A DNA stretch of 64,000 nucleotides from an uncultured Acidobacteriota bacterium (GTDB lineage: Bacteria > Actinomycetota > Acidimicrobiia > Spongiisociales > ZC4RG35): the NCBI GenBank assembly GCA_963780755.1, contig CAWACX010000001.1, positions 351,278 through 415,277 of the forward strand, in the 5' to 3' direction. Each line of letters begins with the position of its first letter. The stretch's first letter is position 1. The notes beneath the pieces were generated by a model, which had not been told where the DNA came from, did no database searches, and was given only the letters and a program-made list of their open reading frames with translations. Made by a program: the position numbers and the translations under genes. This document shows, in pieces, positions 8,483 to 10,714 of this stretch.

Positions 8483-8512
8483 TTGACAGCAGCGACCCCG
8501 CCTGTGGATAAT
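8483..8512 (+). promoter_or_regulatory. Sigma-A type promoter of leader peptide/pheA fusion
   Basis: TTGACA (8483-8488), 18-nt spacer ending TGTG, GATAAT (8507-8512); ATG 8 nt downstream. Confidence 0.7.
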
Positions 8513-8520
8513 CGCCGCAC

Positions 8521-8601
8521 ATGAAGGCGACCTTCAACCCGGCCGATTCCAGCGCTGCGCAGCGTTCGTTCGGGTTCGCCTACTTCTACTTCGGCGCCTA
8601 G
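8521..8601 (+). CDS. Phe/Tyr-rich leader peptide MKATFNPADSSAAQRSFGFAYFYFGA (pheL-like)
   Basis: 26-codon ORF, 6 Phe/Tyr codons within 8 positions near the stop, 73 nt upstream of the Phe/aromatic biosynthesis gene. Confidence 0.85.
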   Translation: MKATFNPADSSAAQRSFGFAYFYFGA

Positions 8602-8674
8602 CGCCGATTCACCCCACCCCCGCGCCACTCGAATCCACCTCTGACGCAACGCGTCCCATATACCGATTGATGAG

Positions 8675-10714
8675 ATGAGCACCAACAACCACCTCGAAGA
8701 AGACGACATCAACCAGATCCGAGACGACATAGACCGGGTCGACTCCGAGATCCTCAAGCTGCTGGCCGAGCGCAAGGCATTCAGCCTCCGCATGGCCCGG
8801 GAGAAGGGCCTGCACGCCCGGCCCTCCCGCGACATGTCCCGGGAAGAGGACCTGATCTCGGACCGGATAAGCGCCGGCATGAGCCACGACCTCGACTCGG
8901 GCCTGGTGAACCGGGTTTGGCGGGAGATCATCAACGACTCGGTGCGGGTCCAACAGGAGTTCCTGGGCCGGAGCGAGGCAGCGCCGGACCAGGTCACCGT
9001 GGCCATTCAGGGGATCGATGGCTCCTACAGCCATCTCGCCTCACGCCAGTTCTTCGACGGCAAGGGCTTGACCCCGAACTACGTGAAAGCTCACACCTTC
9101 GCCGATGCGGTCCGCGCAGTGCAGCAGGGAAATGCCGATGTCGCCGTGCTTCCGGTGGAAAACACCACATCTGGTGCCATCTCGGAGGTCTATGACCTGC
9201 TGTTGGACAGTCAGCTCCACTTCGTCGGTGACGTGCGGTTTCGGGTTCGACACTGTCTTCTCGGGGTGGCGGGGGCGTCGATCACCGGCCTTCGCCGGAT
9301 CTACTGCCATCCGCAAGCGGTCACCCAGTGCTCCGAGTTCCTGGCCGGCCTCGACCACTGCGAGATCGTCTACTTCTCCGACACCGCCCTCTCCGGGAAG
9401 GTGATCGGGGAGATGAACGACCCCACGGTGGCCGCGATCGCCAGTGAGGAAGCGGCACGCCTCTACGGGCTCGACATCCTCAAGTCCGGCATCGCCAACC
9501 AGTCAGAGAACTACACCAGGTTCGTCGTGGTCGCTCCCACTCCGATAGACGTGCCCGATGGGGTTCTCTCCAAGACTTCGATAGTGATGGCGGTTGGAAA
9601 CCATCCCGGTGCCTTGATGGACGCGCTGGCAGTGTTCCGGGAGGCGGACATCAACCTGGTGATGCTGGAGTCTCGGCCGATACCGAGCAATCCGAGGGAG
9701 GAGCTGTTTTACCTCGACTTCGACGGCAACCTCTCCGACCCCGCGGTTCAGGCGGTGTTCGATGCCCTCACCAAGCAGGTCCGGTTCCTCAAGGTGCTCG
9801 GCAGCTACCCGTCGCGTGATCTCCGCCCCCGGCCGGTGCGCCGGGAGTCGGAGCGGTTGGAGCCTCAGGGTCTCGAAGCGATCCCAGTGGCAGCAGCGCT
9901 GTCCAGTGGCCCCAAGGGAGTCAAGCTTGGGAGCAGGGTCCACAAGGAGAACAACACCGTCGTCGAGGTCCAGGGTGTGGAGATCGGCGGCGAGCAGATG
10001 GTGGTCATGGCCGGGCCGTGCGCTGTGGAATCGTGGGACCAGGTGATGGCCGCAGCCAAGGGAGTCAAAGAAGCCGGGGGCTCGGTGCTTCGCGGCGGTT
10101 GCTTCAAGCCCCGATCTTCGCCCTATTCCTTCCAGGGCCTGGGCTACGAGGGTCTGGAGATGCTGGTGGAGGCGGGCCGGGCTTACGGGCTCCCGGTGGT
10201 CACCGAGGTCCTCTCGCCGGAGGACGTCGAGGGCATTTCCCGCAAGGCCGACATCCTCCAGGTCGGCGCTCGGAATATGCAGAACTTCTCGCTGCTCAAT
10301 GCGGTAGGACGGGCCCATCGCCCGGTGCTGCTCAAGCGTGGGATGAGCTCGTCAATCGAAGAACTGCTCCAGGCGGCGGAGTACATCCTGGCCGGTGGCA
10401 ACCAGGAGGTGATTCTCTGTGAACGGGGGATTCGCACCTTTGAGACTGCCACCAGGAACACCCTCGATTTGAGCGCGGTCCCGGTGCTGCGCCGTCACAC
10501 CCACCTCCCGATCATCGTCGACCCGTCGCACGCGGCCGGGGACCGTGAGCTCGTGGCGCCGCTGGCCCTCGCGGCGCAGGCGATCGGTGCGGACGGCCTG
10601 ATCATCGAGGTCCATCCCAATCCCGACGAGGCTCTCAGCGATGGGCCGCAGTCACTGCGGCTCGAACAGTTCGGGACGCTGATGGGTGCTCTCGGCTTCA
10701 CACCCGCTCTTTAA
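8675..10714 (+). CDS. pheA: Trifunctional chorismate mutase / prephenate dehydratase (ACT) / DAHP synthase I-beta
   Basis: Aro[94 protein letters not shown]. Confidence 0.93.

Follow-up and report, generated by a model that had tools for sequence, protein, structure and literature searches.

A putatively leaderless Phe/Tyr-rich leader ORF before a three-enzyme aromatic fusion gene in one family of Acidimicrobiia: a candidate ribosome-mediated attenuator

Most work on leader-peptide attenuation has been done in Proteobacteria and Firmicutes, where the leaders are led by a Shine-Dalgarno (SD) sequence and the terminators carry a U-tract. The pheL leader of E. coli has this build: it is SD-led and comes with a canonical terminator/antiterminator pair. 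Here we describe a locus that resembles pheL-pheA in that a leader peptide rich in Phe codons stands before a gene for chorismate mutase and prephenate dehydratase, but differs from it in being, by prediction, leaderless, in having no terminator and in matching no Rfam leader family. The locus lies in a stretch of 64,000 nucleotides (nt) from an uncultured bacterium of the Acidimicrobiia (assembly GCA_963780755.1, contig CAWACX010000001.1, positions 351,278 to 415,277; hereafter the window, with coordinates on its plus strand unless stated otherwise). It consists of an upstream open reading frame (uORF), a hairpin around the stop codon of this uORF and a C-rich tract, followed by a gene in which DAHP synthase is fused to the two activities just named. 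In our estimate the chances are about even that the element is a ribosome-mediated attenuator of the aromatic pathway that works by translational attenuation with Rho polarity. Most likely, slow ribosomes on the uORF report a shortage of Phe or Tyr by a route other than the textbook terminator. The sensor half of this reading is well founded by analogy and codon bias; what we infer beyond it is in which direction the leader responds, which step it controls and whether Rho takes part.

For Actinobacteria, the aroR leader is said to have been reported by Neshat et al. in 2014. The leader peptide, with Phe-Tyr-Phe, precedes the DAHP synthase gene aroF of C. glutamicum and is described as a transcription attenuator; expression goes up when ribosomes stall under Phe limitation, and the availability of Tyr is without effect (PMC11802643, PMC4046766). 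Both aroR and the present element are actinobacterial leaders with Phe and Tyr codons before a DAHP synthase gene, and the indifference of aroR to Tyr fits the apparent dispensability of Tyr that we describe below. The differences, compared by description only, are that the present element has no U-tract terminator, places its stop codon in a hairpin loop, is predicted to form a helix between the 5' end and the codon block, and precedes a fusion of three enzymes.

Another comparison concerns Ms5788A of mycobacteria, a leaderless small ORF (sORF) with a poly-Cys tract. Stalled ribosomes unmask the SD there; the regulation is translational and does without a terminator, and polarity on the genes downstream, possibly via Rho, is discussed (Canestrari et al., bioRxiv 10.1101/834739). 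The two leaders have in common a sORF that is some 30 codons long (leaderless there and predicted to be so here) and carries its sensing codons at the 3' end, an untranslated stretch behind it (97 nt there, 73 nt here) and the lack of a terminator. The Cys tract covers the SD, as the codon block is predicted to do in group B, a sister group of the window's genus. Ms5788A differs in sensing Cys and in that nearly the whole leader is one stable duplex with the Cys tract on the SD; such a pairing is not detectable in the window's genus, whose main start has no clear SD. The stop codon in a hairpin, the C-rich tract and the helix named Domain I below are features of the present element that were not met in the accessible description of Ms5788A.

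Finally, several uORFs are known to act through Rho. For tnaC, speFL and cruR, the shielding cases, stalling takes place at the stop codon or on the Rho utilization (rut) site, and in the Mg cases, mgtL and corL, the leader is restructured (PMC12360218). Whether transcription goes on in these systems depends on the state of the uORF's ribosome, and the order of a uORF followed by a stretch biased to C over G is found here as well. They sense a free ligand or the supply of Mg or Pro, whereas in the present element the hungry codons lie upstream of the hairpin.

Since aroR, leaderless leader peptides and leaderless sORF attenuators are all on record for Actinobacteria, the kind of system is already known. 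The first-pass annotation of the window, made from the letters alone, had considered a stalling sensor of Phe and Tyr to be new to actinobacteria; this was too wide a claim, given the Phe-Tyr-Phe leader before C. glutamicum aroF and the leaderless sORF attenuators of mycobacteria (PMC11802643, PMC4046766, bioRxiv 10.1101/834739). In the literature searched, which excludes supplements and much subscription literature, we did not find a leaderless Phe uORF, a family-wide design in Acidimicrobiia, a helix of 5' end and codon block, or a stop codon within such a hairpin. Likewise, no paper in the literature searched joins 'Acidimicrobiia' and 'leader peptide'.

The uORF directly follows a strong promoter of the sigma-70 type (8483-8512), with the -35 box TTGACA at 8483-8488, an 18-nt spacer and the -10 box GATAAT at 8507-8512. 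It matches the consensus at 11 of 12 positions and is the sole sigma-70-like site between 7500 and 9500 (mean of 0.2 in shuffled sequences). The -10 box is separated by 8 nt from the ATG at 8521, and with the promoter directly adjoining there is no room for an SD upstream of this ATG. Both boxes are kept in the 11 leaders of the window's genus and in group B; across the lineages read, 6-10 nt lie between the end of the -10 box and the start codon of the uORF. Judging from this geometry, transcription would start at 8519-8521, i.e. at the uORF AUG or at most 2 nt from it. Some leaders have an in-frame GTG within the -10 box, but in the window's subgroup it is out of frame, and ATG is therefore favoured as the start of the uORF. 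A weak hint of a transcription start near 8521 also comes from assembled contigs of public runs: an RNA-library contig spans 8534-8725 and joins uORF, spacer and gene start, 8404-8504 is covered by no contig from three RNA libraries, and 8327-8555 is spanned by a contig of DNA origin. The three RNA libraries come from a single study, and assembled contigs of this kind give no start, end or level.

The uORF itself (8521-8601) has 26 codons, reads MKATFNPADSSAAQRSFGFAYFYFGA, ends in FGFAYFYFGA with the stop codon TAG at 8599-8601, and is presumably translated; its frame is open in 37 distinct leaders. Its sensing codons are located at the 3' end. They form a block of eight, codons 17-24 at 8569-8592 (F-G-F-A-Y-F-Y-F; TTC GGG TTC GCC TAC TTC TAC TTC), which is nearly invariant in nucleotide sequence within the window's genus and whose 5' part doubles as the 3' arm of Domain I. 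Six of the last 10 residues are Phe or Tyr (P = 2e-6 against a background of 4.75% F+Y in the long ORFs of the genome). Promoter, leaderless geometry, Phe/Tyr-rich end, 7-base-pair (bp) stop hairpin and the 73-nt C-rich, G-poor spacer without U-tract or intrinsic terminator had all been read from the window in the first-pass annotation, and each of them is borne out by our analysis.

The same annotation had suggested looking for Phe/Tyr-rich uORFs upstream of orthologues, and such a survey shows clear conservation. We used a detector that jointly requires an ORF of 15-35 codons with at least three F/Y in its last 12 residues, a hairpin of 5 bp or more that encloses the stop codon, and a C-rich tract. 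The composite is detected in 48 out of 123 loci, representing 37 distinct leaders. These 48 include every locus in which an Acidimicrobiia copy of the fused gene is present with its 5' end, and no others; they come from one Acidimicrobiia family only. None of the remaining 75 loci has the composite; they comprise 69 stand-alone DAHP synthase loci, four fused-gene loci that are cut at the 5' end (L011, L051, L052 and L057), L058 from a metagenome-assembled genome (MAG) of the Polyangiaceae, and the rho locus. Of the 13 other genomes of the genus, 11 have the fused gene; the two in which no copy was found, G004 and G009, are each 92% complete. G021, from another genus, has the gene as well. Two genomes marked unpublished (G011 and G027) enter only this tally and, via L011 and L017, the detector misses, and none of the positive findings depends on them.

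Results of the first search and of a wider scan follow the same pattern: the uORF is present in all 12 readable upstream regions, the window's own included, and further copies of the gene at 77-78%, 67-68% and 59% protein identity each have an F/Y uORF of leaderless geometry. When 151 genomes sampled from the class were scanned with a covariance model (R1) of the uORF end, the hairpin and the tract, 11 of them gave a match, each a single one. Beyond the window's genome these matches occur in 10 out of 15 genomes of its family and in none of any other family. The nine newly found lineages all continue into a DAHP synthase domain, the fusion gene is retained in every leader-carrying lineage, and the element occurs only before this gene. 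Scanning the window's genome for other copies or sister leaders (stop in a hairpin plus C-rich sequence) gave 36 places, of which only the known one is a leader. Three look-alikes (C2 ~249700, C1 ~1209 and C1 ~20229) were rejected as they precede unrelated ORFs.

The 37 leaders are 20-29 codons long, with an N-terminal half that varies freely and a C-terminal end that is rich in Phe and Tyr. Their last 12 residues contain 2-6 Phe and 0-3 Tyr. Tyr is missing in two leaders (L048 and L050) and encoded by a single codon in 22, from which it appears that Tyr is dispensable for the element. The idea of joint Phe and Tyr sensing thus holds insofar as a Phe/Tyr-rich uORF precedes an aromatic gene, but for Tyr it cannot be generalized. 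The leaders of the window's genus hardly differ over their last 11 codons and the 25 nt that follow the stop, synonymous sites included, while the first codons of the main gene vary; this argues for a constraint on the RNA.

Two further observations concern codon usage at the end of the leaders. For the Tyr-Phe pair that immediately precedes the hairpin, group B, group E, L013 and the newly found lineages use TAT TTC; TAT accounts for only 28% of the Tyr codons in the window's genome, and the window uses TAC. As for the stop codons, 32 leaders end with TAG, three with TAA and two, from one genus, with TGA, whereas TGA ends 338 out of 446 long ORFs of the window's genome. The bias towards TAG and TAA may stem from one old choice, because the lineages are related. 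A rule restricting the leaders to stop codons of release factor 1 (RF1) only was rejected: 35 of the 37 comply with it, but the two TGA leaders do not.

At the level of the peptide, YFG followed by A or V ends 33 of the 37 leaders, and three group E leaders end in YFG, YFGA and YFGS. Recurrence of this motif could mean that the uORF is no sensor of tRNA charging at all, the nascent peptide either arresting on free Phe or Tyr in the manner of TnaC or being a small hydrophobic protein with a function of its own. We consider this extremely improbable. The last residues differ between leaders (none, A, S or V), there is free variation in the N-terminal half, and the element stands before this one gene only. 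Moreover, arrest at high Phe would need a route by which expression is lowered, and the sequence gives no hint of one. The conservation of the C-terminal residues is explained by the fact that their codons form an arm of the stop hairpin.

This hairpin (8591-8607) pairs TCGGCGC (8591-8597) with GCGCCGA (8601-8607) around the loop CTA (8598-8600), which puts the TAG of the uORF at the junction of loop and 3' arm. All 37 leaders have a hairpin with the stop codon in its loop, and the sequence pattern is unique in the window's genome. L046 and L048 preserve the stem through G-U pairs, which exist in RNA only; an RNA hairpin is therefore indicated, and a reading of the palindrome as a DNA operator is disfavoured.

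With a 7-bp G+C stem right after the regulatory codons, one might think of classical transcription attenuation, the hairpin being a factor-aided intrinsic terminator without U-tract, and GGCGC and GCGCY in the uORF serving as alternative partners. The segments GGCGC, GCGCY, TCGGCGC and GCGCCGA can indeed pair 1:2 and 3:4, or else 2:3, with the regulatory codons located between segments 2 and 3. Actinobacterial 3' stem-loops are often without U-rich tails (PMC13613805), and UUUU does follow the stem in one lineage (L118). Nonetheless we find this explanation very improbable. There is no U-tract (by eye, the 8 nt that follow the stem contain 1-4 U, depending on the lineage), and no terminator-like site was found between 7500 and 9500 (mean of 1.1 in shuffles). 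The sign would also be wrong for a biosynthetic gene: as the stop codon is in the loop, a ribosome that finishes the uORF destroys the hairpin, and one that is stalled at the first Phe codons would let it form. Canonical termination at the window's leader is unlikely. A cmscan of 7500-9500 against Rfam with E up to 10 yielded five unrelated matches (E at least 1.3) and no leader family.

Domain I is a helix of the mRNA 5' end with the Phe/Tyr codon block. According to the minimum free energy fold and RNAalifold on the genus, its 5' arm (8525-8542) pairs through 8525-8530 with 8576-8581 and through 8537-8542 with 8570-8575; the helix is also predicted in group B. Helix 1 is 99% paired and shows one compensatory change (A-U to U-A in L044). 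When the 5' arm (nt 1-24) is tested against the block, the duplex energy gives a z below 0 in 21 of 22 representatives and of -0.00 in the remaining one (D), with a mean of -1.52 and eight values below -1.65. The complementarity is lineage-specific: cognate pairs reach -17.3 kcal/mol against -13.2 kcal/mol for non-cognate ones (13 lineages), a contrast seen in 0 of 20000 permutations, which is not a clean probability as the lineages are related. The closest relatives share block sequences, and this works against the contrast. Strands that differ between lineages stay complementary (by eye), for example AGAGAACAGC with GCUGUUCUUU in L118 and AGCCGCG with CGCGGCU in L120.

These structures suggest the following course, which we prefer. 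Scarcity of Phe-tRNA (in the window's genus also of Tyr-tRNA) would make the ribosome dwell on the F/Y block. The block would act as a hub of the RNA, since it pairs with the mRNA 5' end in Domain I and abuts the stop hairpin, so that a dwelling ribosome would hold both open and initiation at 8675 could take place. A fast ribosome, on the other hand, would reach the stop codon in the hairpin loop and leave, upon which the leader would close into Domain I and the stop hairpin. In the closed state the main start would be poorly used, and together with a long, C-rich and G-poor untranslated spacer this would allow Rho to end transcription.

The link between leader and start is predicted best in group B, where occlusion of the start by the codon block is clear as far as sequence can tell. 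For the six leaders tested, GGGUUCGUC-UAUU-UCGGCGC or the neighbouring CCUCGGCGC pairs with GCGCCGAGGCGAACCC, which contains the SD GAGG. Two tests of these block/start duplexes gave a shuffle p <= 0.05 in four of the six (z -1.5 to -5.4) and in five of the six (z -0.8 to -3.9), respectively, and the SD region is paired in five out of six free folds.

Several results weigh against translational attenuation in the window's own genus. Its main ATG has no clear SD that could be hidden, and the complementarity of uORF and start region is at shuffle level (p 0.065-0.975 in one test and 0.21-0.97 in the other, 11 leaders each). A ribosome footprint on the F/Y codons alters the unpaired probability of the start region by -0.04 to +0.07 in 10 of 11 leaders and by +0.21 in L009. 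The predicted partner of the start region varies by lineage, being the codon block, the C-rich tract or the 5' arm. Covariation within a single alignment is weak, as the count of compensatory pairs is reached in 212 out of 500 shuffles. Besides, a ribosome that sits on the F/Y codons extends no further than roughly the stop codon and leaves the tract uncovered, so that there is no simple route from stalling to the exclusion of Rho. A model with a hidden start was accordingly rejected for the window's genus (duplex z -1.6 to +1.7, none with p <= 0.05, and footprint folding without consistent opening); L013 is left out of these hidden-start duplex and footprint results. In the window's own fold the start region is covered by the tract, with 8624-8635 pairing with 8665-8680.

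What the genus does have at the main start is a mini-ORF, ATG-AGA-TGA (8670-8678), whose stop codon overlaps the main ATG (ATGA) in 11 of 11 leaders. One of these, L003, has a variant of three codons (ATG ACG AGA TGA), and L117 has the analogous ATGCCATGA. Such a start might point to a gate on ribosome flux combined with re-initiation: Domain I would close the 5' AUG after a fast ribosome, a slow one would keep it open for more ribosomes to load, and terminated ribosomes would slide along the spacer, which is free of start codons, and re-initiate via the ATGAGATGA overlap. Among the conserved helices, Domain I has the best support and includes the very 5' end, the genus start combines the lack of an SD with the overlapping two-codon ORF, and the spacers contain few start codons. 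NUGA overlaps for termination-reinitiation are reported to be common in M. tuberculosis (bioRxiv 10.1101/2022.06.01.494293). Even so, this route seems improbable to us. Most other lineages have a normal SD at the main start (GAGG, GGAGA or GGGGAG, by eye), and it would be uncommon for ribosomes to re-initiate after 57-85 nt. As to start codons, the spacers contain 7, where genome composition predicts 42 and the composition of the spacers themselves 11.6; their G-poverty thus accounts for most of the deficit.

We also considered a self-gating leaderless sensor, to which we give very little credence. In this case the helix of 5' end and codons would shut the AUG after fast passage, and a slow ribosome would hold it open for a train of ribosomes; the stop hairpin would re-form behind the terminating ribosome and bias its slide in the 3' direction, over a spacer without G and without start codons, to re-initiation at the SD-less main start. 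If true, amino-acid shortage would raise expression through ribosome flux, without a terminator and without a hidden SD.

The spacer between uORF and main gene (8602-8674) counts 73 nt with 32 C, 13 G and no U-tract. Within it lies the C-rich, G-poor tract TTCACCCCACCCCCGCGCCACTCGAATCCACCTCT (8608-8642), which is a candidate Rho loading site, but may also be read as an unstructured spacer or as a strand that covers the start. The 40 nt at 8609-8648 hold 22 C and 5 G, which is reached by only 0.027% of the genome's 40-nt windows. This composition is kept: the 40 nt after the stop hairpin contain 18-25 C and 2-5 G in all 22 representatives. Also the length is confined, to 57-80 nt in 36 of the 37 leaders (L013 has 85 nt, by eye).

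Rho is encoded in the window's genome (PF07497 match of 107 bits at G000:C1:1145499-1145711), and canonical terminators are scarce there. Only 52 hairpin-plus-T-tract sites were counted in 2.2 Mb, against 23 in a reversed control; being so rare, such sites cannot account for most transcription ends in this organism. In actinobacteria, 3' stem-loops, often without U-tracts, score highest for Rho dependence, and rut sites are weakly predicted by composition alone (PMC13613805). Furthermore, uORFs have been linked to Rho in M. tuberculosis leaders (bioRxiv 10.1101/2022.06.01.494293; PMC12360218).

The presence of rho, the scarcity of terminators, the extreme and conserved C excess and the confined spacer length would all suit direct Rho-dependent attenuation, for which uORF-controlled precedents exist in tnaC, speFL, cruR, mgtL and corL (PMC12360218). 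The tract would then be a rut site on which Rho loads or not, depending on where the leader ribosome stands or how the stop hairpin is folded, and the main start would play no part. We think this unlikely, though it deserves to be kept in view. The known cases shield a rut that touches the stall site, whereas in the present leader 7 nt separate the last hungry codon from the stop, and another 7 nt the stop from the tract, which leaves the tract bare with or without stalling. The 5' arm that stalling would set free has no complementarity to the tract (mean z +0.48, none of 22 significant), so that pairing between them as an anti-Rho device was rejected. Finally, the composition of the tract is also explained by avoidance of start codons and of structure; because G-poverty removes start codons as well, composition alone is no proof of a rut site. 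As the tract is beyond the reach of a ribosome on the F/Y codons and does not pair with the freed 5' arm, we rank Rho as a consequence of an untranslated start rather than as the primary switch.

The regulated gene (8675-10714) encodes a fusion of 679 amino acids with chorismate mutase, prephenate dehydratase, ACT and DAHP synthase (type I family) parts. Domain matches are CM_2 at residues 15-94, PDT at 109-287 and DAHP_synth_1 at 430-669; the ACT match at 303-358 scores 20.7 bits, which is below the Pfam cut-off of 27. A Phe-binding ACT domain beside DAHP synthase could provide allosteric control of pathway entry. A full-text literature search found no paper naming a trifunctional fusion of chorismate mutase, prephenate dehydratase and DAHP synthase. 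The genome has a second, stand-alone DAHP synthase (G000:C2:669135-669893), which shares 61% identity with the domain of the fusion; at that place the leader's hairpin pattern was not found. In two relatives the fused gene matches in overlapping pieces, three at G001:C1:393526-395552 and two at G010:C4:3769-5794, which could be due to frameshifts or assembly errors; the leaders before them (L012 and L010, respectively) are intact.

The value of the element lies in the setting as much as in the parts. In a family of uncultured high-G+C Acidimicrobiia (65.2% G+C for the window's genome), with very few canonical terminators, a leaderless sensor ORF would control a three-enzyme aromatic fusion. 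Its conserved parts (the helix of 5' end and codon block, the stop codon in a hairpin loop, and the C-rich, G-poor spacer with its narrow range of lengths) have no counterpart in the textbook scheme. By analogy with aroR, Phe sensing with Tyr as an option seems to recur before DAHP synthase genes in distant actinobacterial lineages. The 37 natural variants of this compact element could serve to ask how leaderless translation, RNA folding and Rho combine in Actinobacteria. Its practical value is modest, the host being uncultured.

Smaller hairpins accompany the main structures. An apical hairpin inside the uORF (8552-8565) is formed by GCGCT and AGCGT in the window and by GGCGC and GCGCY in relatives, its pairs being retained through G-C to G-U changes. 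Further downstream, GACGC-AAC-GCGTC forms a 5-bp hairpin at 8643-8655; the stem is kept in 10 of 11 genus leaders, with one pair fewer in L010, and the loop is AAC or ACC. Two longer-range pairings that had been proposed for the window, GGGTTCG (8572-78) with CGAATCC (8630-36) and GCGTT (8562-66) with AACGC (8648-52), exist there but are not conserved, as CGAATCC is found in one and GCGTT in two of the 11 genus leaders.

L058, the locus from the Polyangiaceae MAG, has at ~1050-1200 a 39-codon ORF ending in AFFRARFARPLVSG, whose stop codon lies ~20 nt before a prephenate dehydratase / DAHP synthase gene of 45% identity; this may be an unrelated Phe leader. As to the origin of the sequences, L032, L036, L038, L039 and others are near-identical loci titled 'uncultured Acidobacteriota bacterium', while their closest relatives are titled Acidimicrobiia, so that the former titles are probably a labelling slip. 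On the other side of the promoter, a divergent small ORF of ~72 codons runs on the minus strand (8247-8465) from a GTG at 8465, 18 nt from the -35 box. Its product is hydrophobic with a weak match to DUF7269 (E = 1.2e-4), and the genus conserves its start, which on the plus strand reads CTTGTTCAT or CTTGTTCAC.

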